From positions 1-52,698 of IMG/VR virus record IMGVR_UViG_3300048800_000113: DNA of 52,698 bases. One strand, 5' to 3'. Origin of the DNA: a virus. Its lineage: Duplodnaviria; Caudoviricetes. Shown one piece after another: positions 3,321 to 51,162 of this stretch (its first letter is position 1; the number at the start of each line of letters is the position of its first letter). The notes beneath the pieces were generated by a model. The model was not told the origin of the DNA, searched no databases, and saw only the letters and a program-made list of their open reading frames with translations. The position numbers and the translations under genes are program-made.

Positions 3321-3369
3321 GGGCGTGCAAACGAGCGTTGTTACGTCTGGTCTGCGAGAGGAGGCCGTG

Positions 3370-3582
3370 ATGAACACCGGCCTGGCACGACGTGCCAAGC
3401 ACGTCATGCAGAAGCGAGCACGTATCAAGCGACGCAAGTACCGCGAGGACCTACGTGCCGGTCTGGTCCGAGGACCGATGACCATCGCTCACCAGAACGG
3501 ACTGCCACACGAGTGGCGCAAGTGCCCAGTGTGCACGATGGCGCACATACGAGCCGTCAACACGATCCCACCTACGACCTAA
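3370..3582 (+). CDS. Small basic hypothetical protein
   Basis: GAGGAGG RBS; MNTGLARRAKH... with CPVC motif. Confidence 0.55.
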   Translation: MNTGLARRAKHVMQKRARIKRRKYREDLRAGLVRGPMTIAHQNGLPHEWRKCPVCTMAHIRAVNTIPPTT

Positions 3583-3591
3583 GGAGTCGTC

Positions 3592-3792
3592 ATGGTCGAG
3601 TACACCGTCACCGACGAGCAGCAAGAGCGCCTCGGCCACCTGACACTGAGGGAGTGGACGAGCATCGCCCACCTGCGTGGCTGGTGCCACAACAGCGTGG
3701 CTTGCCCAACATGCCTGAGCGAACGGAAGGCCATGGCCTTCTGGACGAACAAGGGACGAGCCGACGCGATCCGCGAGATCGCAGAAGGCTGA
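3592..3792 (+). CDS. Small hypothetical protein
   Basis: AAGGAG RBS; 66 aa. Confidence 0.6.
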   Translation: MVEYTVTDEQQERLGHLTLREWTSIAHLRGWCHNSVACPTCLSERKAMAFWTNKGRADAIREIAEG

Positions 3793-3925
3793 GGGAGGTG
3801 AGAACGATGCAACGTGGGCAGGAAAGCTGCCCAATAAGGTGCGCTTGCACCACGGCAAACACATTCCTAGCGGCATAGCCGTAGAGACTCGGGACAATAG
3901 GGCCGAGCGCCTGTGGGAGCACCTT

Positions 3926-3997: not shown

Positions 3998-4194
3998 CTG
4001 TCGCCAGTACGGCGACACGTACCTGAGAGGCCAACGAGCCCTCGGTCGTCGTGCTCAGAGCACGGCTAAAACCAACGCGTAACAAGCGCGTTCAACACAT
4101 CCCCGCTCGGATCGGGTCTTAGTTCCCCGCCGAGTGGTGACGAGACATGCCCAACCTCCGCAAACGGGCGTTGGGCTCCCGCAAAGGAGGACAC

Positions 4195-4353
4195 ATGGAC
4201 TACGAGGTCACTATCTCCACCACCTACACCGTCTTCGCGGTCAGTCCCATCGAGGCCAGTGAGATGGCATTGCATCTTGCTGGCGAAGACGGGCTGCACG
4301 TCGACCGCTCCAACGTCAACATCAGCGTCAAGCCCAGTGGCCGTGATACCTGA
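4195..4353 (+). CDS. Small hypothetical protein
   Basis: AAAGGAGG RBS before ATG 4195. Confidence 0.6.
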   Translation: MDYEVTISTTYTVFAVSPIEASEMALHLAGEDGLHVDRSNVNISVKPSGRDT

Positions 4354-4648: not shown

Positions 4649-4736
4649 TCGTGAGGATGGGCACGTTAGCAGCCTGGGTTCTATTCGACATCGCCATGCT
4701 CGTGGTGCTCGTGGTGCTAGTCCGCAGGTCGGGTCA

Positions 4737-4964
4737 ATGAGCCCGCGCAACATCGAGCCACCTCACCCGCCCTCTGTAGGTAGGAGGCAGATCGTGGGCT
4801 GGAGCTACAACGGCGCTCTCTACTGCGTCGACCACGAGCCCGACTACAAGACAGCCGTCGCCAGTCCCAACGTGGAATCTCTCGACATCCCCCAGCCCGT
4901 CTTCCTCGACGAGATCACCAGTCACGACGTCTGTGACCTCTGCCTTATCCCGCTGGACGCATGA
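4737..4964 (+). CDS. Small Cys-containing hypothetical protein
   Basis: YCVDH...CDLC possible Zn ligands. Confidence 0.5.
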   Translation: MSPRNIEPPHPPSVGRRQIVGWSYNGALYCVDHEPDYKTAVASPNVESLDIPQPVFLDEITSHDVCDLCLIPLDA

Positions 4965-4976
4965 GAGGAGCAAAGC

Positions 4977-5195
4977 ATGAAGCACGACGAACACGACCGG
5001 CACCGACTGTCGATCGTGCGCATCGAGCCGCCGACAACGCTCGTTTGCAGCCTTGGCTGCTGCGGCGAGCCAGCTGGCTACCAGTTCGTTGGCCGGCGCT
5101 CTGACGGTGGAGATCTGTTCACCTGCAGTCGCCATGTCAGCCAGGTTCAGGAGTGGGTCGGTGGCCATCCCATCACGATCCACCCAGCGCCATGA
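4977..5195 (+). CDS. Small hypothetical protein
   Basis: GAGGAG RBS; CSLGCC...CSRH. Confidence 0.55.
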   Translation: MKHDEHDRHRLSIVRIEPPTTLVCSLGCCGEPAGYQFVGRRSDGGDLFTCSRHVSQVQEWVGGHPITIHPAP

Positions 5196-5407
5196 CCACC
5201 CGCGACAAGGATCTGCCGATCACGTGGTCAGAGCCCGAGAAGGCGGACATGGAGCGCGTCATCAACGAGTGCCCCACCCACCTCTACACGTACAGCCCGG
5301 AGGCTGGCGACACCCGCTACGTCTTCAGCGACGTGCCCTACACCCTGCGCCTGGGCAACGCCTACCTGCACGCCATCCACGTCAAGGAGGGACAACCCCA
5401 TGTCTGA
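5192..5407 (+). CDS. Small hypothetical protein
   Basis: ATGA overlap with upstream gene; GC3 bias. Confidence 0.55.
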   Translation: MTTRDKDLPITWSEPEKADMERVINECPTHLYTYSPEAGDTRYVFSDVPYTLRLGNAYLHAIHVKEGQPHV

Positions 5408-5678
5408 AACCACCACAATCCGCCTGAAGGGGCCCGCGGATCTGCTCACGTCCCTGCCCTACCAACTCGGTTACCACCCCAAGGACAGCATCGTGGTCGT
5501 CTGCATGAACAACGGCCGGGTCGGACTGGTCCAACGCCTGGACCTTCCACCGATCGAGCATGTCGTTGACGCTCTGGCCTCCATGCTCGAGCCGATGATG
5601 CGTCAGCGTCCCTGCACGTTGGCATGGCCAGCTGGCTGGCCAACCGAATCACCAGGGTCAGCGCGTCGCTGCCTCTGA
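5400..5678 (+). CDS. DUF4192-like N-terminal fragment (truncated)
   Basis: IRLKGPADLLTSLPYQLGYHPKDSIVVV...RVGLVQRLDLP matches the actinobacterial DUF4192 N-terminus as I recall it; only 92 aa. Confidence 0.6.
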   Translation: MSETTTIRLKGPADLLTSLPYQLGYHPKDSIVVVCMNNGRVGLVQRLDLPPIEHVVDALASMLEPMMRQRPCTLAWPAGWPTESPGSARRCL

Positions 5679-6177: not shown

Positions 6178-6411
6178 ATGCCATGGAAGGAGATCGATCT
6201 CATCACTGAATCCTTGGGCGAGGGGGACTTAGACCCACTCATCAATGCCCTGCTGGCCCTTGCGCCAGCATCGCGCTTCAACCTCATGAATGCGGTGCGA
6301 GCACTGCAGATCAGAGGTGTCGGGGGGCAGTTGCGCATCCACATCGATCACAGGGGTGACGTCGAGGTCGAGTTCTTCGGCCTGACCCCTGCGTCCGAAC
6401 AACCGAGATAG
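6178..6411 (+). CDS. Hypothetical protein
   Basis: ORF in operon order. Confidence 0.5.
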   Translation: MPWKEIDLITESLGEGDLDPLINALLALAPASRFNLMNAVRALQIRGVGGQLRIHIDHRGDVEVEFFGLTPASEQPR

Positions 6412-6419
6412 GAGGAGCC

Positions 6420-6638
6420 ATGACAACGCCCGTTCTTACAGCGCTCGACCGCTGCGACATCTGCGGCGCTCAAGCCTATGTCCGGGTCACCGTTCTTGTC
6501 CCGGACAAGAGCAAGAACTGCGAGCTGCTGTTCTGCAGCCATCACTACAACATCCACCAGCCTGCCCTGATCTACAGCGGGGCGCAGGTCCGCCAGGACC
6601 AGCGCGACGAGCTTGTGAGGGAGGAGACCCGTGTCTGA
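6420..6638 (+). CDS. Conserved actinobacterial small Zn-binding protein (LTxxDRCDxCGAQAY...LLFCxHH)
   Basis: AGGAGGAG RBS; recognisable CxxC...CxHH pattern. Confidence 0.7.
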   Translation: MTTPVLTALDRCDICGAQAYVRVTVLVPDKSKNCELLFCSHHYNIHQPALIYSGAQVRQDQRDELVREETRV

Positions 6639-6799
6639 CATGCCGAAGAGCATCAGCATCTTCGAGGCCCTGTCTGAGAAGGCGGCCTTGCTGCGAGACC
6701 CGAAGTTCCGGGCCCTGTTGGCCAACGCCACCTACATCCCACTCGTGACCCGATCACCGGACGAGATCTTCGGGCCGTGCCCCATCCCTGGAGTCTCCG

Positions 6800-7089: not shown

Positions 7090-7162
7090 TCCCGAGTGGG
7101 CTGCTGGCAGCCCAGCCAGGCTCTGGACCTGGCCTCCGTTGGTTCGATTCCAGCCTCGGGAG
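7090..7162 (+). tRNA. tRNA-Gln(CTG)
   Basis: Acceptor TCCCGAG/CTCGGGA, anticodon arm CCAGG-CTCTGGA-CCTGG, T-arm GTTGG-TTCGATT-CCAGC, G discriminator; atypical D-arm; no encoded CCA. Confidence 0.8.
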
Positions 7163-7208
7163 CGACCCATCCTGCCAACGTCCGTTGGCACCAACGAAAG
7201 GCAGAGCA

Positions 7209-7586: not shown

Positions 7587-8387
7587 ATGGCATACCGACC
7601 CGGTGTGATCCTTCAGCTCGGCACGATCACCGCAATCGTCGACATCGACAACGCGGTGCAGTCTGTGGCCGGTCTGAAGAACGTGTGTTTGGGGCCGACA
7701 GGCACCGAGCACATCCCCACGGCCTGCAAGCAGCAGTCGCTGAAGTGCCCCGACTGCGGCAACGATGACCCCACCACCTTCAAGAAGGCCAAGGTCGAGG
7801 CCAAGCAGTTCGTCGTCGTGGAGAAGACCGAGGTGGCCGACGCCAAGGCTGGCGCGGTGGGTGCGACCAACAAGTTCATCTCGCTGCTGGCCCACCCTGC
7901 CGAGGAGGTCCACACCCAGACCATCCAAGGCGGCGGCGTCTACCAGCTCAAGGCTGCGAACCAGCCGATGGTGCAGGTCGTCTCGCTGCTGCTGGACACC
8001 CTGCGTCGCCACCCCGAGCTGGCCTTCACCGGCCTGTGGAGCCCGGCTGGCCGCGTGAACTTCTACGAGGTGCGTCCCTTCGGAGACACCCTCGTCATGG
8101 AGGAGCGTGCCCGCACGGAGGAGCTGAAGATCATCCAGCAGCCCGTTGCGGCCATCGACCCTGCATTCCAGTCGCAGGTGGACATCATCCTGGCAGGCAA
8201 CGTGGTGCCCTACAACCCGGCCACCTACCAGGACGCATACCTGCAGAAGCTGGAGGCTGTCCTGGCCTCCAAGCAGGCCCAGGACGGCATCTTGGTGCCC
8301 AAGGGCAAGTCCACCCCGACCGTGGCTGGCGCCGTGGATCTGTCCGCGATGCTGTCCGCTGGCCTGGCTGGTCTGAAGGTCGCCTGA
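7587..8387 (+). CDS. ku: Ku-like DNA end-binding protein
   Basis: Collinear with prokaryotic Ku: N-terminal beta region, CPDCG Zn ribbon, KQFVVVE, YQL...LLLDTL, LVMEE...EEL, YNPATYQDAYLQKLEAVLASK. Confidence 0.75.
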   Translation: MAYRPGVILQLGTITAIVDIDNAVQSVAGLKNVCLGPTGTEHIPTACKQQSLKCPDCGNDDPTTFKKAKVEAKQFVVVEKTEVADAKAGAVGATNKFISLLAHPAEEVHTQTIQGGGVYQLKAANQPMVQVVSLLLDTLRRHPELAFTGLWSPAGRVNFYEVRPFGDTLVMEERARTEELKIIQQPVAAIDPAFQSQVDIILAGNVVPYNPATYQDAYLQKLEAVLASKQAQDGILVPKGKSTPTVAGAVDLSAMLSAGLAGLKVA

Positions 8388-8928: not shown

Positions 8929-9296
8929 CGTGGCAGGCGTGGAATGACGGTGCGGGCAAGCGCAAGTGGTTCCTCGCTCGCGTCATTGACGGTCTCACGG
9001 AGTATCACTGGTCGAAACCTGACCCTCATGGCCAGCAGCACGTGATCCGCTACGCGCGTTACGAGACAGCGTTCCAAGCAGCCGCACGGCTCGACGCGAA
9101 CGTGACAACGCCCGTTAGCAACCCGCCGTTCGAGGCAAGGTGTCCGGGCGGTTGCCACCAAGGTGGCTTCGCGGACTTCGACCACTACTGCGACAGCGCA
9201 GGCATCAAGCCCGGCGAGGAGCCTGTCGCGTTCGCTGCGTGGCTCAATGCAATCTCCGGTTGGGACGGAGAGATGAAGAAGGTAGAGGAGACATGA
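8925..9296 (+). CDS. Hypothetical protein
   Basis: ATGA overlaps on both sides. Confidence 0.55.
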   Translation: MTWQAWNDGAGKRKWFLARVIDGLTEYHWSKPDPHGQQHVIRYARYETAFQAAARLDANVTTPVSNPPFEARCPGGCHQGGFADFDHYCDSAGIKPGEEPVAFAAWLNAISGWDGEMKKVEET

Positions 9297-10225
9297 CCGA
9301 CCCACCGATCCATGACCTGCTGACCACCCTCAACCCAATGCTCGCCGACACCAGCGACATCAAGCTGGCAACGCTCGTTGGCACCCACCTGTTCGACACC
9401 AAGATCGACGGCGTCCGGGCCCTGGCCGCGTGGGATGGCAGCCGCCTGACCATGCGCAACCGCAACGGCCGGCAGATGGACAACTACCTCGACCTAGAGG
9501 TGGCCGCCGCTGGCATCCCTGGCCCGGTCATCCTCGACGGCGAGATCGTCGCCGAGAGCGGCAAGTTCCAGGACATCGCCTGGAGAGACAAGCAGCGGGG
9601 TGCCAAGGTCATCAAGGCCATGCAGGACTGCCCGGCCCACTACGCGGCCTTCGACATCCTGTGGCACCCCGAGAAAGGTGACGTCAGGCACCTGCCCTAC
9701 ATCAACCGGCGCGCCCTGCTGACCGACCTGGACCTGGAGTTCCACGGCGGCCAACGCTGGGCAGCCACCGAGGCCAGCACCGACCCCAAGTTCTACGACG
9801 TCATCCGCGCCCTTGGTGGCGAGGGTGTCGTGGCCAAGCGCTACACAGCCCGCTATGAGCCCGGCCGGCGCAGCACCTGGCTGAAGTACAAGAGCAAGCA
9901 CAGGATTACGTGCATTGGCACCGGCTATGAGCCAGGCAAGGGGGCACGGATTGCTTTCGGCGCCATGTTCCTGAGCGTTCTCGATGACGGAGAGCCCATC
10001 AATGTGGGCCGTGTCGGTTCCGGCTTCACTTTGCCCGAGACCCTTGAGATGAAAGCAATCTTCGATGCGGCGCAATCCGCCGCAGACTTACCGCTTGTCG
10101 AGATTGAATGCTTGGGCATCACGCGCGAAGGAAAACTGCGGCAGCCTGTGTTCGTAGGCTGGCGCACCGACCTGAATATGAACGAGGCCACGGCCGCGCA
10201 AATCGCCACCCTGCCAGTCACCTGA
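9293..10225 (+). CDS. ATP-dependent DNA ligase (LigC/LigD ligase-domain type)
   Basis: Motifs KIDGVR, LDGEIV, AFDIL, EGVVAKR, WLKYK, LRQPVF. Confidence 0.92.
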   Translation: MTDPPIHDLLTTLNPMLADTSDIKLATLVGTHLFDTKIDGVRALAAWDGSRLTMRNRNGRQMDNYLDLEVAAAGIPGPVILDGEIVAESGKFQDIAWRDKQRGAKVIKAMQDCPAHYAAFDILWHPEKGDVRHLPYINRRALLTDLDLEFHGGQRWAATEASTDPKFYDVIRALGGEGVVAKRYTARYEPGRRSTWLKYKSKHRITCIGTGYEPGKGARIAFGAMFLSVLDDGEPINVGRVGSGFTLPETLEMKAIFDAAQSAADLPLVEIECLGITREGKLRQPVFVGWRTDLNMNEATAAQIATLPVT

Positions 10226-10996: not shown

Positions 10997-11042
10997 CAAC
11001 GCACGTTTGCAGACAACCCAACCATCCTAAACGGAGGGACGC

Positions 11043-12245
11043 ATGACCATCATCGCAACACCACCGCAGCTCCACCCCGTCGCTGCATCACTGCAGAGCA
11101 TCCAGGGAGAGCTCGCCTCCTTCTTCAAGGAGCGCCGTACCTGTATCGAGGCAGTCGGTCTAGCCCTGCTCACCGCGGAGCACGCCTTCATCCTGGGACC
11201 TCCCGGGACCGGCAAGTCCTTGCTGATCCGCTCGTTCTTCAAGCGCTTCCCCGACGCTGCGTACTTCGAGCAGCTCCTGTCCAAGACCCTGCCTCCTGAG
11301 GCTGTCCTGGGGCCGTACGACATCCCCGAGCTGAGGGAGCATGGCCACCTGCACCGCAAGTACCAGGGCTTCCTGCCCACTGCCAAGCTCGCCATGCTGG
11401 ATGAGATCGGCAAGATGAGCCCGACGCTGGGTCACAACCTGCTGGCTGTCCTGAATGAGCGACTGCTCCACCAGGTCAACGGCGGCCGCTCGGCGATCGA
11501 CCTGCCTCTGTCAACGGTCGTTGGTGGCTCCAATGAGCTGCCCACCCAGGAGTCCGACGACGCTGCGGCGATGTGGGACAGGGTGCTGATCCGGGTCGTG
11601 ATCAACTACATCCAGGAGACCGGCAACTTCGTCGCCGTCCTGACCGGCCCCAAGGCTCCACCGATGGGCACCACCATCGCCTGGGCCGACATGCAGGACG
11701 TCATCGACACCGTGGTCCCTGACATCAAGATGCCCAACGACGTCATGGAGGTCGTGGCCAAGCTGCGCGAGCAGCTCAAGGGCGTGGAGATCAGCCCGTC
11801 TGATCGTCGCTGGAAGCAGAGCATGAAGCTGCTGCAGGCCAACGCCTTCATGCATGGCCGCGATGAGACCACCACCGACGACATCGAGGTGCTGCGTCAC
11901 TCGCTCTGGGAGAACCCGACCCAGATCTCGCAGGTGGAGCGGATGACCCTGTCCGTGAGCAACCCGATCGCGGAGAAGGCGCTGAGCATCCTGGAGCGTG
12001 CCGAGGAGGTCGCCCAGAACGTGCGCGACTCCAAGGGACTGGCCCTGGACAAGCGTGCCGCCATCGGCACCGAGCTCCACGGCCGCCTGAGGTCCGTCAG
12101 CGAGGACTTGGGCCGTGTCCGGCAGGAGGCGCTGTCCGCCGGCGCTTCGGTGACCAAGCTCGATGAGGTCTCCGCCCGGATCTCCGGGATCAAGGCCTCC
12201 ATCCTCACCGACCTGATGGGTCTCGACCTGGCGAGCCTGCAGTAA
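11043..12245 (+). CDS. MoxR/RavA-family AAA+ ATPase
   Basis: Walker A GPPGTGKS, Walker B MLDEIGK, LAVLNER, GSNELP, WDR, SDRRW. Confidence 0.9.
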   Translation: MTIIATPPQLHPVAASLQSIQGELASFFKERRTCIEAVGLALLTAEHAFILGPPGTGKSLLIRSFFKRFPDAAYFEQLLSKTLPPEAVLGPYDIPELREHGHLHRKYQGFLPTAKLAMLDEIGKMSPTLGHNLLAVLNERLLHQVNGGRSAIDLPLSTVVGGSNELPTQESDDAAAMWDRVLIRVVINYIQETGNFVAVLTGPKAPPMGTTIAWADMQDVIDTVVPDIKMPNDVMEVVAKLREQLKGVEISPSDRRWKQSMKLLQANAFMHGRDETTTDDIEVLRHSLWENPTQISQVERMTLSVSNPIAEKALSILERAEEVAQNVRDSKGLALDKRAAIGTELHGRLRSVSEDLGRVRQEALSAGASVTKLDEVSARISGIKASILTDLMGLDLASLQ

Positions 12246-12247
12246 CC

Positions 12248-12625: not shown

Positions 12626-12864
12626 CCGAATACAGAGTGACCTGGAGCATCGACGTGGAAGCTGACAGCCCGCAAGGGGCTGCCACGAGGGCGCGCGACA
12701 TCCAACAAGATCCCACGACTATCGCCCATGTGTTCGAGGTGGCCAGTCACGACGACAGCAGAACATGGACCGTCGATCTGGACTACGACCCACGGCGAGC
12801 GATACAGGGCAAGTCCAGACTGCACCGCAGGGAAAGGAAACACGACGATGTCTTTCCTAAGTGA
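12622..12864 (+). CDS. Hypothetical protein
   Basis: EYRVTWSIDVEADSP..AA pattern; ATGA overlap. Confidence 0.6.
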   Translation: MTEYRVTWSIDVEADSPQGAATRARDIQQDPTTIAHVFEVASHDDSRTWTVDLDYDPRRAIQGKSRLHRRERKHDDVFPK

Positions 12865-14467
12865 TCTGATCGACAAGGGCAAGGATCTGCTCGCCTGGGA
12901 GCAGAAGCCACCGGACCAGACCGAGGCGATCAAGCGCAACAGCTTCGACCGTCAGGACTGGCAGCACGTCCTGGAAACTGCGCCGACGATCAAGCAGATC
13001 CAGAGCCAGCTGGAGCAGACGGTGGACTACGCCGATGACTTCATGGCTGACCTGCACGCCGGTCTCTTCAAGGTCGAGCCCAGCGTGCGAAGCGCCGATG
13101 AGATGAAGCCAACGCACGTTGCCAACCGGGCCGTGATGGAGCAGCTGCTGGACATGCCGGAGATGCAGACCCTGCGCCAGCACTCCACCGGTGACATCTA
13201 CTCCTCGGCCCTGGCCATGGTCGCCATGCAGGAGACCGCGGTGGAGACCCTGAAGCGGGTCCAGTCGGCAGCCGAAGAGGCCGCCAAGGCAGCAGAAGAG
13301 CGTCAGGCGGAGCGGGAGAAGCGCCAGCAGGAGCTCGCTGACCAACTCGCAGACCTAGCGGCGAACCCGCCGCCTGAGCCACTACCGCCGGGTGCTCAGG
13401 GGCCCGAGCTTCCACCCGATCCCAGGGTGGAGGGACTGAAGACCCAGATGGACCAGTTCGGCTCCATGGCAGCACCGAGCAACAACGGAGTGCAGCAGGC
13501 CGCGCAGGACGCCGCAGCGGGCATGGAGAACAAGCTGCGCTTGGCAGCCAAGAAGGCCACCGATGATCTCGATGAGCAGGAGACGCTGATGCGCTCCTTC
13601 GGCGTCGAGGATGGCGACCTGCAGCGAATGCCCGTCAAGGAGCGGATGGCGCTGGCTCAGAAGCTGGCCAACAACCGGCTCGCCAAGTTCGCCAAGCTGC
13701 TGGGTCAGTTCAAGATGGTCCAGCAGGCCGAGTCCCGCAAGAGGGTGGTCAACGCAGCCAGTGAGGTGCATGGCATCACCACCGGCGATGACCTGGCCCG
13801 GATGGCAACCAGTGAGCTGCTCAACTTCGCGGATGAGTCGCTGGAAGACCTGATGTGGCTGCGCTGGAGCGAGAGCGAGCTGTCCATCTACGACGTCCGC
13901 GGCAAGGAGAACATGGGCCAGGGCCCGATCATCGTGGTCTGCGATGAGTCAGGCTCGATGAACGCAACGGACGTTGCCGGCGGCACCAGGGAGGCCTGGA
14001 GCAAGGCTCTGGCGCTGGCGCTGTGCGATCAGGCCAAGAGGCGCAAGAGGGACTTCCGATACATCGGCTTCTCGTCCGCCGGACAACAGCGCGTTGTGGA
14101 CTTCCCTGGAGGGCATGCCCCGATCAACAAAGTCATTGAGATGACCGAAGGATTCCTCAATGGAGGCACCAACTACGAACAACCTCTGCGCATGGCATTG
14201 CGGATGATTGAGAAAGACTTCGATGCACTGAGTAAACCGCGCCCGGACATCGTTATGATTACTGATGACGCCTATGGATCGCTCGATCCAGAGTTCATGC
14301 ACGAGTGGAATAGAATCAAAGACAAGACATCACTCAAGTGCTATGGCATCGCAGTAGGCTGTGACTTCTCCGGCGCACTGGAATCCATATCTGACAACGT
14401 CCGTTCGATTACTAGTCTCACCGCTTCTGACCCCCGTCAGCTCGGGGACCTATTTAGGACGCTCTGA
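12848..14467 (+). CDS. vWA (MIDAS) domain protein, ViaA-like partner of the AAA+ ATPase
   Basis: IIVVCDESGSM (DxSxS), GGTNYE, DIVMITDD; N-terminal coiled coil. Confidence 0.88.
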   Translation: MSFLSDLIDKGKDLLAWEQKPPDQTEAIKRNSFDRQDWQHVLETAPTIKQIQSQLEQTVDYADDFMADLHAGLFKVEPSVRSADEMKPTHVANRAVMEQLLDMPEMQTLRQHSTGDIYSSALAMVAMQETAVETLKRVQSAAEEAAKAAEERQAEREKRQQELADQLADLAANPPPEPLPPGAQGPELPPDPRVEGLKTQMDQFGSMAAPSNNGVQQAAQDAAAGMENKLRLAAKKATDDLDEQETLMRSFGVEDGDLQRMPVKERMALAQKLANNRLAKFAKLLGQFKMVQQAESRKRVVNAASEVHGITTGDDLARMATSELLNFADESLEDLMWLRWSESELSIYDVRGKENMGQGPIIVVCDESGSMNATDVAGGTREAWSKALALALCDQAKRRKRDFRYIGFSSAGQQRVVDFPGGHAPINKVIEMTEGFLNGGTNYEQPLRMALRMIEKDFDALSKPRPDIVMITDDAYGSLDPEFMHEWNRIKDKTSLKCYGIAVGCDFSGALESISDNVRSITSLTASDPRQLGDLFRTL

Positions 14468-14909: not shown

Positions 14910-14987
14910 CAACGCTCGTTTGCAGACCCGATTTGCCGAAATCTTCTTTCCCCGAAGTCGAGGTTCCCATATAGGAGGAAATCGAAA

Positions 14988-42463: not shown

Positions 42464-42843
42464 GAGAGCCTCCGGTAGTACAGCATGTCCACGGTGTAAT
42501 GGAACAGCCACGGGTTGTGGCCGCCCGACTTCTCAACGGGCGTTGGTGAGAAGCGCTGGCCGAGGACTTCATGCACGCGGCCGAAGTGGTCGGTCAGCTG
42601 CAGCCGGTTCGGCCGGTTCACCCAGGCCTCCAGCGCGTCGTACTCGTCCTGGGTGCGCAGCTTGCCGTTGAACGACCACGTGAAAGGTTTGTCAGGGGTC
42701 CGAGAGCTGCGGACCTTGCCGTCGATGGGTGACTTCGCCAGCGCCTTGGTCGTGTGCGGCTGAGCCATCGAGGCCATCGTCGCCGGGTTGTGCGAGAAGA
42801 CCAGCGTCTGGTTGGCCACCGGGTCGTGGAGCTGCCACCTCAT
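42460..42843 (-). CDS. Minor tail (distal-tail-like) protein
   Basis: RWQLHDP..LVF..NP..M resembles the C-terminal domain of 43334..44161. Confidence 0.65.
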   Translation of the reverse strand: MRWQLHDPVANQTLVFSHNPATMASMAQPHTTKALAKSPIDGKVRSSRTPDKPFTWSFNGKLRTQDEYDALEAWVNRPNRLQLTDHFGRVHEVLGQRFSPTPVEKSGGHNPWLFHYTVDMLYYRRLS

Positions 42844-43334
42844 AGCTGCACCGTGACCTTACGACGGGCCGCGTATCGGGCCGCTGCAGCTCTATTGCAG
42901 GCCCGACAGTACCGCTTACCGTGCTTATCAATGTAGGTGTTGGCCTCGTCGTACGCATGACGCTGTGGGCAGCGGGTTTTGTCCTGGTTGCCGTTATTGC
43001 TGCGGCCCTTTGCATTGCGATCCGCGGCATTCTCTGCGTCCGTCCCAAGGAAGAGGTGCCCCTCGGGGTAGCCTTCGGTCGGCTCAGTCTCACAGCAGGG
43101 TGGATTGTCGCAGTGATGGAGCACCTTCATGCCGGGCGGGATCGGACCGAAGGCCAACTCCCATGCAAGACGATGAGTCCGGACCTCCACCCCAAAGACA
43201 CTGATCCGGCCATAGCCATACCCGTGCCCGGTCCATTCCAGACATCCGTTCGGCATCCTCACCAACTTCGCAGCGAGACGCTCACGGATTGTCATGCCCA
43301 TGTACGTGCCGTCAGCCAAGCAGTACCTACCCAT
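42840..43334 (-). CDS. HNH homing endonuclease inserted in the tail module
   Basis: GCLEWTG..YGRI..THRLAW..VLHHCDNPPC..HLFLGT..N; CPQRHAY..NT..YCRAC. Confidence 0.9.
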   Translation of the reverse strand: MGRYCLADGTYMGMTIRERLAAKLVRMPNGCLEWTGHGYGYGRISVFGVEVRTHRLAWELAFGPIPPGMKVLHHCDNPPCCETEPTEGYPEGHLFLGTDAENAADRNAKGRSNNGNQDKTRCPQRHAYDEANTYIDKHGKRYCRACNRAAAARYAARRKVTVQL

Positions 43335-44161
43335 TAGAGTTGCACCGGCCCTGCGTAGATGATCGCCTTGAGCTGGTAGGTGAACGCCCAGTCGTTGTAG
43401 GCCTCGGGCAGCCGGGTCCAGGCGATGTTCTCCAGCGTCACCGTCCACGCACGAGAGAGATGGTCGATCATGTAGACCCGCCTGGGCATGGCCAGGAACG
43501 TCTCCAGCGCGTCGTGGAAGGCTTCCGTGCGGCAAGCGCCCTCCACCGTCCAGTCGACGCCCACAGGGGCTCCCTCGAACGTCAGAGGCTGCCCATCAGA
43601 CGCGGTGGAGTGCTCGATAGCGAACACCCTCCCCGCGTGCGGCGGAGACATCTTGCTCGGGCTGATCGGGAAGACGAAGCTCTCGCCTCCCGAGGTCGGA
43701 TCCTGCAAGACCCACCTGGTAACGCCCGTTTGCGTGACCGCTACCGGCGGGGAGTCTGCGGCCAGGCCCACCGGATAAGACACAGGCGGGTTGGTCACGA
43801 TGAACGAGACCGTGCCGGACAGCGTAGGCGTGGTCGCAGTGATTGTGTGCGAGCCCGCAGTCAGAGCCGGCAGTGGGATGGACATCCCGATGACCTGACC
43901 GTTGCTATCCAGCGTTGCTCCGAAGATCGTCACGCCACCGTCGATCGAGAAGTTGACAGGATCATTCGGTACCCCGTTGCTGACGGTGACCTTCAGCCAC
44001 GACGGAGTGGTGAGCACAGCAGCCAGGATTTCGACCTGCAGCGGGGCAACGCGAGCGCCACCGGCCCAGGTCACGGTGCCCGTGTCGGTGTACGTGGTCG
44101 TGGCCGGATGGACCCGCACGTAGTAGACGACACCCTCAGAGACCGGCGCCAGAACGGTCAT
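43334..44161 (-). CDS. Minor tail protein
   Basis: Ig-like beta region + distal-tail-like C-terminal domain. Confidence 0.65.
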   Translation of the reverse strand: MTVLAPVSEGVVYYVRVHPATTTYTDTGTVTWAGGARVAPLQVEILAAVLTTPSWLKVTVSNGVPNDPVNFSIDGGVTIFGATLDSNGQVIGMSIPLPALTAGSHTITATTPTLSGTVSFIVTNPPVSYPVGLAADSPPVAVTQTGVTRWVLQDPTSGGESFVFPISPSKMSPPHAGRVFAIEHSTASDGQPLTFEGAPVGVDWTVEGACRTEAFHDALETFLAMPRRVYMIDHLSRAWTVTLENIAWTRLPEAYNDWAFTYQLKAIIYAGPVQL

Positions 44162-44820
44162 GTCAGGGCCATCGCATTCACAGGACTGGCAGCCACAACG
44201 ACTGCACCGAGATCGACGAGCTCGGCTCGCAGCGGAGTGGCAACGGTCGTTGCCAGAGCACTCACCGTGACCGCACCGAGAGTGACCAGGGAGCTGCCGT
44301 CAGTGGCTATAAAGGTCAGGTCGTCGGGCCCGGCTCCGGGCGGGCCCGCGTAGAGCTCGATGTCAGCACCATGAGCAAAGCCGCTAGTCGAGGCCAGCCA
44401 GTCGGCCACCTGGGACTCAGTGAACTCATACCAGATCGAGGGTGCCGCCGCAGGACCGGTGAGCGCCACTGGCTCGGTAGCCACGAACAGAGCGCTGGCG
44501 AAGTCAAGCACGCGAGTGTCCGAGTCCGACGCAGCATAGGGGTTGGCCAAAGTCCCCGACTGGGCCAGGGTGAGCGCGCTTGCCAGCTCGGCAAACACCG
44601 TGATCGCGCCCAGGTCGACAGGAGTAGGCCCAACGACCACGGCGGGAGTGATCAGCGTCGAGTCGGCCACCAGAGCGACGTCGGCAGTAAAGATCGTGGC
44701 CGCGTCAGTGATCAGGGTCGAGTCCGCAACCAGCGCGTCAGCAGCGAGCGAGGTCGCCAAGCCATCTGCAGTCAGAATGCTCTCTGCGACAAGATCCGCG
44801 GCACCGGTGACGTCGGCCAT
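44158..44820 (-). CDS. Minor tail protein with short internal repeats
   Basis: GAGGAGG RBS; repeats (A)LVA(D/E)S(T/I)L(I/T). Confidence 0.55.
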   Translation of the reverse strand: MADVTGAADLVAESILTADGLATSLAADALVADSTLITDAATIFTADVALVADSTLITPAVVVGPTPVDLGAITVFAELASALTLAQSGTLANPYAASDSDTRVLDFASALFVATEPVALTGPAAAPSIWYEFTESQVADWLASTSGFAHGADIELYAGPPGAGPDDLTFIATDGSSLVTLGAVTVSALATTVATPLRAELVDLGAVVVAASPVNAMALT

Positions 44821-44852
44821 ACCCCCACCTCCTCATCTGGAAACGGGCGTTG

Positions 44853-48300: not shown

Positions 48301-49894
48301 GCTCAGCGGTGAAGCCAGACTGCTTCAGAAGGTCGGCGATCTGCGCCGTACCACCCAGCAGCGACCCACCAAGCTGCTGCCCGTAGTGCTGAGCGATGAC
48401 GGTAGCTGCGTCGTAGAGCTTGCTGGCGCCCATCGCGTCGCGCTCGTAGTTCTGAGCGATGGCGCCGAGCTCGCCGAGGGTCTTGTCGTTGGCAATCGCT
48501 CGCGCTGCCGGGTCACCGAAGGCTCCGGTGGACTTGGCGCCCTCGAGCAGGTTGACGGTCGAGCCCAGTTGTGCGCCGACAGCGCCGGCCACCCCGGAGG
48601 TGTCTCGGAAGAACCGGGTGTACTTGGTCGCCGCATCAACCGCAATGGCTGGAGCAGTGGCGAGGTTCTGGCCGATCGTAGAGTAGGTCTCGGCCAGACC
48701 AACCGCCTGCTCGTGGTTCCCACCCAGGGCGATGGTGAGCTGGTTGACCGCCAGCGAGTACTCCTCGGTGGCGACCTTGACCTCACGCAGAAGCCGGGAG
48801 CCCTCCTGGAAGGCCATGAAGAAGCCGTAGTACTTCAGCATCGTCATGCCGCTCATGCCGCCGCCGAACATGCCGCCGCCGCCACCGGAGGCAGACACGG
48901 CCTGCTCCTCCATGGCAGCCGTCAGGCGCTCCTCTACCGCGAGCGTCCGGATGCGGGCCTGCGCGAGCGCAACCTCGGTGACAGTGCCTTCCTTGGCAGC
49001 CAGGAGAGTCTGCTCTTTGGCCACCGCGATCGAGGCGTCCAACTGCAACTGCTGGACCTTGGCCGGCGCCATCTGGTCGATCCCAGACAAGACCGGGGCA
49101 ACCATGGGAGCAGCGGCCGCCTTCTCGGCCGCCAGTGCCTGACTCTCCTCCGCCGCAACCACGCGACGATCAGCAGCGATGAGGTTCGAGATGCCAGACG
49201 ACAGCGCAGCGGTCCGCTGCTCGACGGTCGCGTACTCCTTGTCGATAGCCATCGTCAGCCTCGACTGAGCGGCGACCAGTTTCGCCTGGGCCTCCTCCAA
49301 CGGCGTACCCTCGCCAACGCCCGTTGTCGCGGAGATCTGCGCCTTTACTCCCGCGAGCCCCTCCGCGCCGGAAAGTCCACCAGAGACGGCCCCAATAGGC
49401 GTGACCACTCCCCCGGGGCCCATCTGCAAACCCAGAGCTGCCAACTGCCGATTACCTGCGCCGACTACCGGCGCAGCAGCCGCCATCCCCGACGCCTCAG
49501 CCTGGACCTTCGCCGTAGAAACGGCCGTTAGCTGAGCCTCCTGCTGGACGATCATCAGCTGCCTGAGCTTGTTGATCAGCAGGTCGGTGTCCTCGATGCC
49601 GCTACGCATCGCAGCGTGCGTGCCCTCGTTCTGTATGGGCTCGGCGCTGTATGCCCGACCCGCAGTCCTCAGGTCAGCCAGAGCAACCTTCAGCTGCTCC
49701 AGCACGCCCATGGTGGCGGTGGCGCCAGCCTCGACGCCGCCGAAGACCTGCTCGCCCAGCTGTACGCCGGGCATGTTGGCAAGCTCGGCCATCCTGGCCT
49801 GCAACGCCTGAATGATCTCGCCCAGTTGGGCGGCCGCACCTTCGTCCTGGACGCGGATTGAGATGAGCCCGTCAAACAGCGGGTCAACGGCCAC
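45374..49894 (-). CDS. Tape measure protein
   Basis: 1506 aa, Ala/Gly-rich helical with hydrophobic stretches; directly after the tail assembly chaperones. Confidence 0.9.
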   Translation of the reverse strand: MAVDPLFDGLISIRVQDEGAAAQLGEIIQALQARMAELANMPGVQLGEQVFGGVEAGATATMGVLEQLKVALADLRTAGRAYSAEPIQNEGTHAAMRSGIEDTDLLINKLRQLMIVQQEAQLTAVSTAKVQAEASGMAAAAPVVGAGNRQLAALGLQMGPGGVVTPIGAVSGGLSGAEGLAGVKAQISATTGVGEGTPLEEAQAKLVAAQSRLTMAIDKEYATVEQRTAALSSGISNLIAADRRVVAAEESQALAAEKAAAAPMVAPVLSGIDQMAPAKVQQLQLDASIAVAKEQTLLAAKEGTVTEVALAQARIRTLAVEERLTAAMEEQAVSASGGGGGMFGGGMSGMTMLKYYGFFMAFQEGSRLLREVKVATEEYSLAVNQLTIALGGNHEQAVGLAETYSTIGQNLATAPAIAVDAATKYTRFFRDTSGVAGAVGAQLGSTVNLLEGAKSTGAFGDPAARAIANDKTLGELGAIAQNYERDAMGASKLYDAATVIAQHYGQQLGGSLLGGTAQIADLLKQSGFTAEQGLALTGSVMQYTGNTSEQAAGDLKRFLGRQGSATFNDVFAEFQINQNQSLRDELVQLGAKFQDLSETQRAKVISTLGGGRAGAAVVAAITDLPAQTSIAAEGANSVGVAFDQAQARLGTFAGRLEQIVADWSALSKDMGTSGLGSVFGDALGLVDPLLRGVDALVSGFAVLPGYVKQFLEVLALASVAGRIFGGSFGLVGMTNMLDKVGGIGAGAAEVVSADATAARVAALGLDASATGVDTAAIEVNTVAAGENAIAQGAAAGAADVASVSLIGRLGALAGAAGGAALALAPFVAAVAGIALLGEVWGSYGKSQDAATQTAAAFTAHANAKTADEKASAAAEADTAINALQAAQEGIGGTVLYGANSGTGGERRLRNPRGPVTGPESGLYKQSADLQAQLQANSDADYRASLTPAQQTYEDLKNFSLTHTTAPTTSLAPGVSAVSLTPAQQSFAGDYTDVNRGINNLATTHASVSKSIAMLRDELAHIPDTSLADFFTPQPGSKGGADELKRLTTQIGRTGDPIQREADLGAISSLTAEASRRAAGTDQQDAADAMYDTALKAYHQAVLGNVKSKVDSIHAMQSDNAASQGQIRNTVSAALREFASTGDIDSVVGLLAGVDKAFITTFNRGIAAERKILQDQLAALEAAAGAAANAAIDASSDPRQQAIIANRSITNVTPAEKAKQDAIAKDVAIANSMAKAAALAVPGGSDFTWPKDKAATGPTAAQIEEARLAAQAIPGDPMSAAITNLRVAQYKMSEPKNQVEYWTALKALHDAQYAYSMAVQAAANDARQLGEDLTNPLVVAREKVREAADQLTMDQRRGALPDVINKDKLALKQAQSAAEKSAFDQQFSDQQTNYNLQRESLSAYLSYLNSQHNYLSSVQNKTRQQVDELNQVDQALQGLANQMQGQFNLGAIKVPTAYEARAIGAGGLTTNVQITINGTDIPAVKAILTQYLGQGAMSTVGSSARKV

Positions 49895-49909
49895 CGGACT
49901 ACCTCTTCT

Positions 49910-50233
49910 CTACAGCCCTAGCTGCTGGATCAGTTCGTTCTCTTCCATGTCCGGGATGGTTTCCATTGCCACTCCCGGGTTCTGCCGTCTCGTCTTCACG
50001 TCCTCGAACCACTTCATTAGCGAGTCGTCGTCGCCCCACATCTCCTGTGGCGGGATCTCGTCCTCGTTCGGCATCTCGAAGTAGCCCAAGACCATCAAGG
50101 CCTCGTTGACGGCTAGGACGAGATCGTGGCCGGCTCGGCGGATGTCACCTCCGGGCCAGATTCCTTGGATTCCTCCGGCTTGCTTGAAGGCCCGTGCGAC
50201 TCGGAGGAACTCGCCGGACCTGCCGAGAAACGC
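49910..50233 (-). CDS. C-terminal (-1 frame) part of the frameshifted tail assembly chaperone
   Basis: The -1 frame is open from ~50233: FLGRSGEFLRVARAFKQAGG..LVLAVNEALMVLGYFEMP..PPQEMW.DD..L.KWF. Confidence 0.65.
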   Translation of the reverse strand, partial: AFLGRSGEFLRVARAFKQAGGIQGIWPGGDIRRAGHDLVLAVNEALMVLGYFEMPNEDEIPPQEMWGDDDSLMKWFEDVKTRRQNPGVAMETIPDMEENELIQQLGL

Positions 50234-51012
50234 GCAACGTCCGGAGGCATGTTCAGCCGGTCATAGGCTGCCTTGACCTGCAGTAGCAGGGACTCCGGAA
50301 GTTGGTCCACCTCCTGCCGGTCGTCCAGCCAGCGGCGAGAGTGGTCACAAGCCGTAGGGGTTTGCGGCGTTCCTGTGTGCTGCCAACGCCCGTCCTCATC
50401 GCGGGTCGCCTCGCACATCCGCAGCGAGTAGAAGATCTGCGACTTGCTCTGCTCCCGCAAGAACGCCGCGATCCCCTGCTGGTCGCAGTAGGCGTCCAGA
50501 TGCATCGCCCGCAGCTTGTCCTCGGGCAGGGCGGTCAACTCACCGCGCATCTCGTTGCGCAGGAAGTCGGTGCGATGGGTCATCTCGGCCTGGTACTCGT
50601 CCAGCACCTTCCTGACCACCGCCACCTCGGGGTCGTCGTCCGCCTTGCCGGTCAGCTGGTCGGAGGACCACTCCAGCGTCTCCAGCTTGTCCGCCCACTC
50701 CTTCTCGGAGTGGAGCTCGCGGATGACTTTGACGGTGCGCTCGTTGTCCTTGGCCGCAACCAGCGAGTCGATGATCTGCTCCTTGGGCACGGTCCTGGAG
50801 GTGATCTTGAACAGGTCCGCCTCAGGAGTCCCTACCTCCGTGATGGCCAGCATGATCCGGGCCCGAGCGATCCTGCCCTCATGCGCCGCCTGCTCCGCCT
50901 CGAACGGGCTGAGCTTGTTCATCCACACCACGATCTCTGAGCCATCGCTGGCCTTCAGAGGCTCAACAGCACCTTCCTCGAACAGGTCCGTGAGCTTTGC
51001 CAACCGTCCCAT
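50113..51012 (-). CDS. Tail assembly chaperone
   Basis: Between major tail and tape measure genes; AAAGGAG RBS; Ser-rich tail after the candidate slip site. Confidence 0.75.
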   Translation of the reverse strand: MGRLAKLTDLFEEGAVEPLKASDGSEIVVWMNKLSPFEAEQAAHEGRIARARIMLAITEVGTPEADLFKITSRTVPKEQIIDSLVAAKDNERTVKVIRELHSEKEWADKLETLEWSSDQLTGKADDDPEVAVVRKVLDEYQAEMTHRTDFLRNEMRGELTALPEDKLRAMHLDAYCDQQGIAAFLREQSKSQIFYSLRMCEATRDEDGRWQHTGTPQTPTACDHSRRWLDDRQEVDQLPESLLLQVKAAYDRLNMPPDVARFSAGPASSSESHGPSSKPEESKESGPEVTSAEPATISS

Positions 51013-51162
51013 GACATCTCCTTTGTCGAGCCCCTCACATCGAGCCGATGTGAGTACCGCCCGGACCCGGCCTGTGTGTCAAGAGGTCGGGGCCGAGCGG
51101 TCATCCAATTCCCAGTTGTGCGTCTTGCAGGTCTAACAACGTGCGTTTTTACATCTGGTTCC

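Follow-up and report, generated by a model that had tools for sequence, protein, structure and literature searches.

Introduction

Short sequences repeated along phage chromosomes have been described in actinobacteriophages, and the closest to the one reported here is the palindrome of Cluster O mycobacteriophages. The Cluster O phage Corndog carries 34 copies of the 17-bp palindrome TGTTCGGNNNCCGAACA, and only three further sites differ from it at one position; 14 of the 34 copies are intergenic and 10 more lie near gene starts (PMC4351075). In the parts of that report that treat the repeat, its copies are described as running through the whole genome, between and inside genes, and as absent from host genomes, and the authors take them for sites of a dimeric protein, with function unknown (PMC4351075). 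Ryadel has 31 copies of the same palindrome (PMC6439249). Stoperators, described for Cluster A, Cluster CA and the R4/phiJoe group, are dispersed sites at which a small phage repressor acts in addition to its operator; in the accounts cited they are asymmetric, 13-14 bp long, oriented with transcription and placed between genes or over gene ends, and the repressor is a monomeric two-domain protein (PMC9283540, PMC13313380, PMC10276819). Here we analyze IMG/VR record IMGVR_UViG_3300048800_000113 (Duplodnaviria; Caudoviricetes), a linear viral contig of 52,698 bases taken in full and called the window below, in which the palindrome AACGNNCGTT recurs about once per kilobase.

The repeat had been noticed in a first-pass annotation of the window, which proposed that a dimeric protein binds it across the whole phage chromosome under selection acting on the DNA. 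Our results indicate that the palindrome is very probably a protein-binding site under DNA-level selection, and they point with moderate confidence to a LexA-like protein encoded by relatives of this phage, referred to as mini-LexA, as its reader. Taken as a whole, and with most weight on the step that names the reader, the reading that the copies are mini-LexA operators spread genome-wide, symmetric and resembling stoperators, appears finely balanced, inclining slightly toward doubt. No description of this motif in a phage was found in literature searches on the motif itself, on Cluster O repeats, on actinobacteriophage palindromes, on stoperators since 2017 and on mycobacteriophage LexA-like proteins.

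Results and Discussion

A strictly spaced palindrome recurs throughout the window

Exact copies of AACGNNCGTT number 46 and extend from 3330 to 51147 (Table 1), where the first-pass annotation had counted at least 45. Dinucleotide-preserving shuffles of the window (n = 100) contained a mean of 0.24 copies and a maximum of 2, and 0 of 100 reached 46; the runner-up among palindromes made of a 4-mer, two free bases and the reverse complement of that 4-mer has 7 copies in the window. The spacing is strict, since AACG-N2-CGTT occurs 46 times and the other spacings from N0 to N12, in either order of the half-sites, occur 0-2 times each. Symmetry reaches out to 18 bp with the consensus TGnC-AACG-nn-CGTT-GnCA. 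The position counts over the 46 sites bear out the symmetric flanks described earlier: on the left, position -4 is T in 30 and C in 14 sites, -3 is G in 32 and A in 11, and -1 is C in 30, and on the right, G stands at +10 in 24 sites, C (25) or T (12) at +12, and A (26) or G (13) at +13. The central dinucleotide is GG in 11 sites and CC in 7, giving 18 of 46 compared to the 17 of 45 reported before, and the 18-mers quoted at 7173 and 18274 and the 22-mers quoted at 10993 and 14906 were all present.

The core behaves as an all-or-none sequence. Variants with one mismatch number 16 in the window versus 17 in the reversed sequence, and Markov-1 simulations (n = 60) gave a mean of 12.2 and a maximum of 19. 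Thus, the seven one-mismatch copies listed in the first-pass annotation all exist, but as a class such copies are not enriched. A few of them look like nascent sites or sites decayed recently, for example the one at 50385, which is an exact copy in the relative G1.

Most copies lie inside genes, as had been noted. In a gene map that is crude and built on GC3, 39 of the 46 copies are inside crude open reading frames (ORFs), with 26 read as xxA-ACG-NNC-GTT (the frame emphasized earlier), nine as AAC-GNN-CGT-T and four in the third frame; the remaining seven are intergenic, 22-253 bp upstream of a gene start. The same map divides the window into a block transcribed from the plus strand (about 2.3-21.4 kb) and one transcribed from the minus strand (21.7 kb to the contig end), and the density of the palindrome is 0.88 and 0.93 per kb in the two blocks. 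The intragenic copies are evenly spread along the ORFs (6, 8, 7, 12 and 6 by quintile), and no regular spacing was detected along the window, the intervals being near random (coefficient of variation 0.80 versus 0.98 for random placement, P ~0.07). Placement within genes carries a cost in codons: 27 of the 161 GTT codons lie in the motif, GTT accounting for 161 of 1256 Val codons in the window, and codons of the form NNA make up 8.9% of all window codons, in agreement with the earlier statement that rare codons are imposed.

One explanation for such a pattern needs no reader at all, the palindrome arising as a side effect of the codons or peptides used, forming a hairpin in the nucleic acid, or having been left behind by a small mobile repeat. 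The preponderance of a single frame, in which 26 of the 39 genic copies encode T-x-V, is what a coding by-product would produce. However, a synonymous-codon shuffle within the 72 crudely called ORFs, which keeps each protein and the codon usage of each ORF, including the T-x-V peptides that the motif itself makes, left on average 1.57 genic copies, and never more than 5, in 300 trials compared to 39 observed, so the enrichment survived the codon-preserving check that had been suggested for it; moreover, copies occur in all three frames and between genes. A hairpin or cruciform was rejected. The invariant stem is only 4 bp with a 2-nt loop, and complementarity between the flanks of a site did not exceed the shuffled value, that is, what column composition gives, when the window, G2 and G5 were taken singly (with one exception among 24 pairs, P = 0.03). 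An excess at pair (-3,+12) in the pooled sites most likely arises from mixing lineages of differing flank composition. A mobile mini-repeat was likewise rejected, as the copies have no common sequence beyond the 18 bp and the best pair agrees at 25 of 40 flank positions. Finally, the motif is not enriched in three outgroup phages of similar or lower GC content. Together these results leave an origin without a reader close to refuted. The lack of covariation between left and right flanks instead favors two half-sites that match the consensus independently, as expected for a protein with two-fold symmetry. The dimeric protein of the first-pass annotation therefore fits the sites in its symmetry and its independent half-sites; that it binds them we infer.

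These features recall Cluster O, in which dozens of copies with invariant arms and a free spacer are likewise dispersed genome-wide in an actinobacteriophage; a Ku-like protein is also encoded in both groups, as Cluster O and Omega mycobacteriophages are known to encode Ku. In contrast to Cluster O, the sequence is a different one, the spacer is N2 rather than N3, and the arms consist of four invariant bases plus weaker flanks. Copies are also placed differently, with 39 of 46 inside ORFs here and 14 of 34 intergenic in Corndog. The phage groups are unrelated, and searches of the phage collection with three proteins of the window gave no close relative. Also in contrast to Cluster O, a candidate reader with a conserved operator can be named here, and positions turn over among more divergent relatives, as described below.

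Side observations on individual copies include a tRNA-Gln gene (7090-7163) that is followed, after 9 bases, by a perfect 18-mer at 7173-7190, which recurs at 18274-18291. In an unrelated viral contig of 51% GC (G004:C1:18388-19588, L143), six copies of AACG(TG/CA/AG)CGTT are packed into 1.2 kb, three of which have a spacing of exactly 72 bp; this local array resembles iterons or operators and would be another use of the same core.

Relatives keep the density of the palindrome rather than its positions

Relatives syntenic with the window were found by protein-seeded and pattern-seeded scans of IMG/VR; an 18-mer pattern scan of the collection returned at least 116 stretches, which served as leads rather than as a census. 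The motif persists in at least 13 related viral contigs, at densities of 0.24-0.78 copies per kb and with 0-1 matches each to a reversed-pattern control. The counts were 15 in 31.6 kb (G001), 55 in 70.4 kb (G002), 10 in 16.6 kb (G003), 43 in 86.1 kb (G005), 4 in 7.8 kb (G006), 8 in 21.4 kb (G007), 3 in 5.4 kb (G008), 15 in 22.9 kb (G009), 17 in 70.1 kb (G418), 16 in 55.3 kb (G419), 19 in 42.2 kb (G420) and 16 in 30.1 kb (G421), and loci L238, L242, L244, L245 and L248 contain 0.29-0.69 copies per kb. G006, G007 and G009 were considered as unrelated phages having only an HNH gene in common with the window, an assignment that ORF-level comparison rejected: they are homologous to the parts of G1, G2 and G5 past the end of the window and belong to the same clade. 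G005 (L135-L139) differs from the window in encoding an Acb2/Tad1-type hairpin domain (anti-CBASS/Thoeris sponge family), WGR and RyR domains, a C5 methyltransferase and two tandem GerE regulators.

Alignment showed that individual sites turn over. G1, at about 84% nucleotide identity, has five of six aligned sites in common with the window, and G2, at about 70%, has one of five; in the aligned regions, two sites of G1 and four of G2 have no counterpart in the window. Since positions turn over while copies per kilobase persist, density is conserved and individual positions are not, which answers the earlier question of whether relatives keep their sites or replace them. The changes that create sites include amino acid replacements, such as Gly to Val at 11513 relative to G2. 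Flank preference is lineage specific, with G-n-T-G-C-S before AACG in G005 and only weak preference in G002, and the 8-base core is invariant. More distant relatives, with terminases 40-51% identical, showed no enrichment (GX15bay, 1 copy in 50 kb; G422, 1 in 30.6 kb; L247, 0 in 12.1 kb).

The abundance of the palindrome in possible hosts was assessed in Actinomycetota, the phylum presumed for the host of this phage. Among 401 genomes drawn evenly from the phylum, 15 of which are flagged unpublished, we found 0-62 copies per genome, unlike a host-wide motif such as HIP1, an uptake sequence or Chi, which would be at least as abundant in the host chromosome as in the phage. Five further genomes reached through a sigma-factor search had 9-39 copies each. 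The maximum over these 406 genomes was about 0.03 copies per kb, and the motif was no commoner than its reversed control. In the genomes sampled the motif is therefore not a host-wide compositional feature, an outcome that the first-pass annotation had named as one that would refute its proposal. The observation is thus real and strong and not a compositional artifact. Because the palindrome survives a codon-aware null model, imposes rare codons and keeps its density despite turnover, selection at the DNA level, as proposed at the outset, is supported.

A LexA-like protein is the candidate reader

Pfam scans of about 60 window ORFs revealed no match to a helix-turn-helix (HTH) repressor, a ParB protein or a methyltransferase (HTH_17 only below threshold). 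The window is also not the whole phage chromosome for which the first-pass annotation had taken it: CheckV places its completeness at 63%, and profile searches of its ORFs found no terminase or capsid genes, which, judging from relatives, lie past its right end. In a batch Pfam scan, 94 ORFs of G005 yielded a LexA DNA-binding domain, two GerE genes, a C5 methyltransferase, Ku and others. The protein with the LexA domain has about 75 residues, spans only the N-terminal winged helix that binds DNA in LexA, and is without the self-cleaving C-terminal domain that provides protease and dimerization functions. Matches to Pfam LexA_DNA_bind had E-values of 8.9e-18 in G005, 1e-9 in G002 and 4.6e-8 in G009, and the best solved relatives are LexA repressors (3k2z at 2.4e-7, then 1lea and 3jso). 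A homodimer prediction for the protein (score 0.02) was uninformative either way.

The gene for this protein accompanies the motif through the clade. A profile built from six clade sequences identified it in all 12 clade loci with 4.3 kb or more of sequence upstream of the terminase gene, at a place 2-7 kb upstream of that gene; four other clade loci are too short upstream of terminase to judge. None of the three outgroup loci L250, L247 and GX15bay has it (motif copies 1, 0 and 1), L247 reaching only 3 kb upstream. With the same profile, no match at E<=1 was found in the window or in G1, with Wildcat gp13 as positive control, so the earlier remark that the window holds no obvious cognate repressor stands. 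However, L228 is 99% identical to the end of G1, extends past it and carries the gene, so that the phage of the window is expected to have it past position 52698. The suggestion that a repressor be sought in the rest of the genome thus led to a conserved candidate, encoded by relatives just beyond the point at which the contig ends.

The position of the palindrome relative to this gene is also conserved. Every one of the 12 loci has at least one copy 35-1159 bp upstream of the LexA-like gene, and 6 of the 12 have a close pair of copies, 40-72 bp apart; among the 45 spacings in the window, only 1 is as short. The copy nearest to the gene is 35-340 bp upstream in five loci, a distance that would leave no gene between the two. 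The pair is kept across lineages whose LexA-like proteins are 36-50% identical, while ordinary positions turn over, and it is kept in L237, whose contig has the lowest density, 0.24 per kb. A repressor that regulates its own gene from a primary operator would be expected to show such an arrangement. In G002 and G421, two of ten contigs searched, all of them incomplete, a tyrosine integrase gene was found at a distance of about 2-3.5 kb from the LexA-like gene, and no serine recombinase was found in six contigs. The integrase suggests that at least some members of the clade are probably temperate.

The motif itself has a recognizable likeness to the site of LexA. Its AAC-N4-GTT frame is also that of the SOS-type boxes that precede lexA in one genome each of Streptomyces and Cellulomonas, and the candidate reader matches the LexA DNA-binding domain. 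In contrast to the SOS box (GAAC-N4-GTTC), the base before AAC in the window half-sites is C in 59% and G in 11%, no site of the window matches GAAC-N4-GTTC, and the outer bases of the spacer are fixed as G and C. Furthermore, SOS boxes number tens per multi-megabase genome, not one per kilobase, and the phage protein has no cleavable C-terminal domain. The palindrome resembles an SOS box that has diverged and become private.

Other candidates for a reader common to the clade were rejected on their distribution. The GerE/LuxR genes occur only in G005, one of six records, and HTH_17 genes exceed the cut-off only in G002 and G009, two of six, with the match in the window below threshold. The C5 methyltransferase, present only in G002 and G005, bears on another explanation, in which the motif, with its two CpG per copy, is the target of an enzyme that modifies or cuts DNA. 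The lack of enrichment of one-mismatch variants is consistent with an enzyme recognition site, but a methylation target would call for the enzyme in all carriers, and the gene was found in only two of five records and not in the window, including the stretch syntenic with the G002 locus that holds it. Phages, moreover, normally lose rather than accumulate restriction targets, and weak, symmetric, lineage-specific flanks out to 18 bp resemble operator contacts more than an enzyme site. We consider an enzyme target very improbable.

An additional sequence was noticed beside some copies. All four occurrences of TACRTCTGG in the window and all three in G009 (L144) are exactly 2 bases after a palindrome, forming the composite AACGnnCGTT-nn-TACrTCTGGTyc at 3330-3351, 31518-31539 and 51138-51159 (+) and 34691-34712 (-) in the window and at 3137 and 10116 (+) and 1908 (-) in G009. 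A similar ACGTCG follows the first operator-like copy 5' of the LexA-like gene in L241, L229 and L245. The extension may belong to a promoter or be bound by a second protein.

Weighing the LexA-like reader against a host protein

Several observations weigh against mini-LexA as the reader. The assignment is drawn from sequence and gene position, and the association of gene and motif may reflect a single evolutionary gain, so that 12 of 12 and 0 of 3 are not independent events; many other genes are likewise specific to the clade. In the mycobacteriophage Wildcat, a LexA domain that stands alone and shares 43.5% identity with the G005 protein occurs without any iterated palindrome, AACGNNCGTT being present 3 times in 78.3 kb, indicating that such a protein alone does not imply a genome-wide motif; it might serve instead as a repressor that cannot be cleaved, directed at the SOS genes of the host. 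Residues aligned to the recognition helix of LexA vary among lineages, whereas the 8-base core is invariant. The operator-like copies are often several hundred bases from the LexA-like gene, and simple sigma-70 scans of L249 3100-3500 and L241 5500-6300 found no promoter, other promoter types being outside the scan. The missing near-cognate variants are unusual for a set of transcription-factor operators, an integrase was not found in eight of the ten incomplete contigs, and, unlike stoperators, which are asymmetric and lie between genes or at gene ends, the sites are mostly inside ORFs and evenly spread. The host, finally, is presumed from a WhiG-like sigma factor and a DUF4192 domain.

Some of these points are more easily accommodated if the palindrome is an unusual box read by a protein of the host, either the host LexA or a regulator of TetR type such as PaaR, which the phage would borrow so as to couple its expression to the physiology of the host, or would titrate from the host chromosome. 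The TetR-family regulator PaaR (TTHA0973) of Thermus thermophilus has, in the account of its two promoters, the promoter-derived consensus CNAACGNNCGTTNG and the in vitro selected consensus AACnAACGTTnGTT (PMC6651687). CNAACGNNCGTTNG contains the same 10-bp core, so a dimeric helix-turn-helix regulator can associate with it; on the other hand, PaaR is a host regulator, and Pfam scans of the window and of G005 found no TetR domain. An 8-base core that is identical across lineages whose proteins are 40-60% identical is explained more easily by a slowly evolving host factor, and the AAC-N4-GTT frame is the one of the two actinobacterial SOS boxes. In G005, 36% of half-sites have G at -1 and nine sites match GAAC-N4-GTTC, and the few tens of copies per host genome are compatible with a small regulon. 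Against a host reader, the half-sites of the window prefer C and contain no such match, the 406 genomes, at no more than the level of the reversed control, give no sign of a regulon, and the copy or pair upstream of the phage LexA-like gene in 12 of 12 loci is left unexplained. We regard a host reader as improbable and continue to favor mini-LexA.

Possible consequences of binding

If mini-LexA is the reader, each half-site of a private operator derived from the SOS box would be occupied by one molecule of the protein. The copy or close pair upstream of its own gene would serve as the primary autoregulatory operator, and the intragenic copies in both transcription blocks would act as roadblocks or silencing sites irrespective of orientation, much like stoperators but symmetric. 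The dispersed copies could thereby hold the phage genome quiet in lysogeny or time its expression. The binding of mini-LexA to the motif, its binding as a pair and the consequence of binding are steps that we infer, and we propose genome-wide transcriptional silencing or roadblocking as the effect only tentatively.

Among the options listed in the first-pass annotation, an analogue of stoperators has drawn the most support, from the operator-like copy or pair in 12 of 12 loci and the integrase in two contigs. The likeness lies in many dispersed copies, 46 in 52.7 kb, in phages of known or presumed actinobacterial hosts. For the immunity repressor that at stoperators stops elongating RNA polymerase, the counterpart here would be the candidate mini-LexA, with operator-like copies upstream of its gene. 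It does not extend to the asymmetry of stoperators or to their place at gene boundaries: the sites here are palindromic, without orientation and mostly in mid-gene, the candidate reader is a single winged helix of LexA type, and an integrase is known from only two of the ten contigs, all incomplete. The Streptomyces phage phiC31 offers another comparison, with a 17-bp inverted repeat at many places that is bound by the phage repressor; its copies are far fewer and lie mainly at early promoters.

Alternatively, a bound protein, possibly the LexA-like one, could use the copies as a mark of the phage's own DNA, for protection from nucleases of phage or host, for counter-silencing of the Lsr2 type, for Chi-like stimulation of recombination or for compaction. 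A mark of self would account for a density at least 30 times that of any sampled candidate host genome, for near-random spacing at similar density in both transcription blocks, for copies at any position within genes with density rather than position being kept, and for the all-or-none core. Compatible with it are also the nuclease and recombination genes of the phage (three HNH, two endonuclease VII, a PD-(D/E)XK nuclease and AAA_24) and the eight of ten contigs that show no integrase. Nevertheless, Chi sites are asymmetric, and neither a ParB-type nor an Lsr2-type domain was among the Pfam matches of the window or of the 94 G005 ORFs. The same scans lend no support to the parS/matS-like sites proposed earlier, since no domain of a ParB or MatP-type organizing system was among the matches from these incomplete records. 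In addition, 7 of 46 copies lie 22-253 bp upstream of gene starts, and a regulatory role is suggested by the conserved copy or pair that precedes the LexA-like gene. A mark of self thus seems distinctly unlikely, and regulation by mini-LexA remains the preferred interpretation.

By their defining traits the system belongs to neither the Cluster O nor the stoperator family, but its mode of action is plausibly similar. It is best described as a set of sites that are symmetric, mostly within genes and all-or-none, in an uncultivated clade, with a candidate reader derived from LexA. Stoperators and Cluster O palindromes have so far been known from cultivated actinobacteriophages; sites of the same kind here occur in an uncultivated clade in more extreme form, being mostly in coding sequence at a cost in codons and amino acids, kept in density and intolerant of any mismatch in the core. 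A small candidate reader and a conserved primary operator make the purpose of such sites testable. In its most far-reaching form, which we think unlikely, the phage would have captured the DNA-binding domain of a host LexA as a private "genome code", in which a 75-residue mini-LexA reads a palindrome derived from the SOS box and so switches, shields or marks the whole chromosome regardless of the direction of transcription. If true, a host regulator domain and its box would have been captured and expanded into a system for whole-genome control or identity, providing a symmetric, intragenic counterpart of stoperators and a testable explanation for the unexplained palindromes of Cluster O. The occurrence of AACGNNCGTT at 0.2 or more copies per kb is a signature that picks out members of the clade in metagenomes.

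Gene content of the window

The window has a GC content of 62.6%. Megablast of 18 kb of it gave no match in the phage collection, and three of its proteins, compared to 50,697 phage records, gave remote matches only, the best being the metagenomic phage GX15bay. Its sigma factor is nearest to WhiG of Actinomycetota, including Streptomyces (39-45% identity, all 80 loci kept). The phage is taken to infect an actinobacterium because of this WhiG-like sigma factor, with the DUF4192 domain, which is typical of actinobacteria and their mobile elements, as a weak hint. Besides the genes with coordinates in Table 1, profile searches identified an AAA_24 ATPase, a clamp-loader-like ATPase, a PD-(D/E)XK nuclease and a tape-measure protein.

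Table 1. Copies of the palindrome and other features of the window. Strand is given as "." for every palindrome copy; gene placements follow the crude ORF map, and T-x-V or N-x-R denotes the reading frame.
Feature	Position	Strand	Placement and remarks
tgcaAACGAGCGTTgtta	3330-3339	.	between crude ORFs, 253 bp upstream of + ORF 3592; 3' extension TACGTCTGGT
cgcaAACGGGCGTTgggc	4163-4172	.	5' end of crude ORF 4147-4353(+)
cgacAACGCTCGTTtgca	5036-5045	.	crude ORF 4734-5183(-), doubtful gene call
tgacAACGCCCGTTctta	6425-6434	.	crude ORF 6348-6731(-), doubtful gene call
tgccAACGTCCGTTggca, perfect 18-mer	7177-7186	.	14 bp past tRNA-Gln
tgacAACGCCCGTTagca	9107-9116	.	24 bp upstream of ligase start 9140
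tggcAACGCTCGTTggca	9370-9379	.	ligase gene, T-x-V
taacAACGCACGTTtgca	10998-11007	.	36 bp upstream of MoxR start 11043
tgtcAACGGTCGTTggtg	11513-11522	.	MoxR gene, T-x-V; missing at aligned place in G2
agccAACGCACGTTgcca	13111-13120	.	VWA gene, T-x-V; missing in G2
acgcAACGGACGTTgccg	13966-13975	.	VWA gene, T-x-V; missing in G2
tgacAACGTCCGTTcgat	14396-14405	.	VWA gene, N-x-R; retained in G2
taacAACGCTCGTTtgca	14911-14920	.	doubtful crude ORF 14783-15001(-); ~68 bp upstream of + ORF 14988
tactAACGCCCGTTgtta	16403-16412	.	DUF6744 gene, T-x-V
tgccAACGTCCGTTggca, perfect 18-mer	18278-18287	.	ORF 17711-18493(+), N-x-R
tgccAACGGGCGTTatcg	19012-19021	.	clamp-loader gene, T-x-V; missing in G2
cacaAACGCCCGTTgtta	20422-20431	.	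ORF 20063-20569(+), T-x-V
taccAACGCGCGTTgcta	22120-22129	.	sigma-factor gene, T-x-V
tgcgAACGCACGTTaccg	22590-22599	.	at or just upstream of sigma-factor gene start
tgagAACGCCCGTTacat	23090-23099	.	inside endonuclease VII ORF 22982-23458(-)
cggcAACGGGCGTTgtga	24371-24380	.	ORF 24143-24565(-), T-x-V
cgacAACGAGCGTTtcca	25221-25230	.	ORF 25152-25607(-), T-x-V
cggaAACGAGCGTTggcg	25530-25539	.	ORF 25152-25607(-), T-x-V
tggtAACGGGCGTTgttg	26560-26569	.	ORF 26333-26590(-)
tggcAACGCACGTTcgag	26669-26678	.	ORF 26539-27030(-)
tggtAACGGGCGTTcctc	27721-27730	.	primase-helicase gene, T-x-V
cgcgAACGGACGTTgtag	28104-28113	.	primase-helicase gene, N-x-R
taccAACGGACGTTagcc	28374-28383	.	primase-helicase gene, N-x-R
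cggcAACGATCGTTcagg	28799-28808	.	primase-helicase gene
cgacAACGGCCGTTgcac	29611-29620	.	primase-helicase gene, T-x-V
cctcAACGATCGTTtcca	29974-29983	.	primase-helicase gene, T-x-V
tgacAACGGGCGTTtgta	31518-31527	.	AAA_24 gene, T-x-V; 3' extension TACGTCTGGT
caggAACGGGCGTTgtca	31740-31749	.	AAA_24 gene, T-x-V
cgccAACGGGCGTTacca	34639-34648	.	94 bp upstream of PD-(D/E)XK nuclease gene start
tagcAACGGGCGTTtgca	34703-34712	.	ORF 34658-35035(-); extension on minus strand
tggtAACGGTCGTTgcga	36663-36672	.	ORF 36576-37001(-), T-x-V
tgacAACGACCGTTgttg	38777-38786	.	1411-aa intein-bearing portal-like gene
caacAACGGACGTTgcca	39737-39746	.	1411-aa intein-bearing portal-like gene
tggtAACGGTCGTTccca	40166-40175	.	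1411-aa intein-bearing portal-like gene; retained in G1
tctcAACGGGCGTTggtg	42535-42544	.	ORF 42460-42843(-); missing in G1
tggtAACGCCCGTTtgcg	43721-43730	.	ORF 43334-44161(-); retained in G1
tggcAACGGTCGTTgcca	44242-44251	.	ORF 44158-44820(-); retained in G1
tggaAACGGGCGTTgtca	44842-44851	.	22 bp upstream of start of ORF 44158-44820(-)
cgccAACGCCCGTTgtcg	49316-49325	.	tape-measure gene; retained in G1
tagaAACGGCCGTTagct	49520-49529	.	tape-measure gene
taacAACGTGCGTTttta	51138-51147	.	126 bp upstream of start of ORF 50113-51012(-); 3' extension TACATCTGGT; retained in G1
DUF4192 fragment, 92-aa ORF	5400-5678	+	matches only first 63 DUF4192 positions, 3.1e-15
tRNA-Gln (CTG)	7090-7163		tRNA call
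Ku-like protein	7587-8387	+	PHROG Ku-like match 4.7e-4; G005 orthologue matches Pfam Ku at 1.1e-7
ATP-dependent DNA ligase	9140-10225	+	profile search
MoxR ATPase (bpMoxR type)	11043-12245	+	profile search
VWA-domain protein	12728-14467	+	profile search
FliA/WhiG-type sigma factor	21751-22596	-	profile search
Endonuclease VII ORF	22982-23458	-	profile search; one of two such genes in the window
DnaG-type primase fused to DnaB helicase, LAGLIDADG intein	27391-30354	-	profile search
1411-aa protein, Hint/intein signatures	38276-42511	-	profile/protein comparison; ends resemble GX15bay portal
HNH_3 homing-endonuclease gene	42840-43535	-	profile search; one of three HNH_3 in the window

Three groups of neighboring or mobile genes were noted in addition. 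The gene for the Ku-like protein adjoins that for the ATP-dependent DNA ligase, forming a phage-borne end-joining pair, and the pair of MoxR and VWA genes is also kept in G002 and G005. The HNH_3 gene listed in Table 1 is missing from the corresponding place in the close relative G1, whose alignment with the window skips from 42840 to 43325, and it is 57-65% identical to genes of G007 and G009; it is therefore a mobile gene that moves within the clade.

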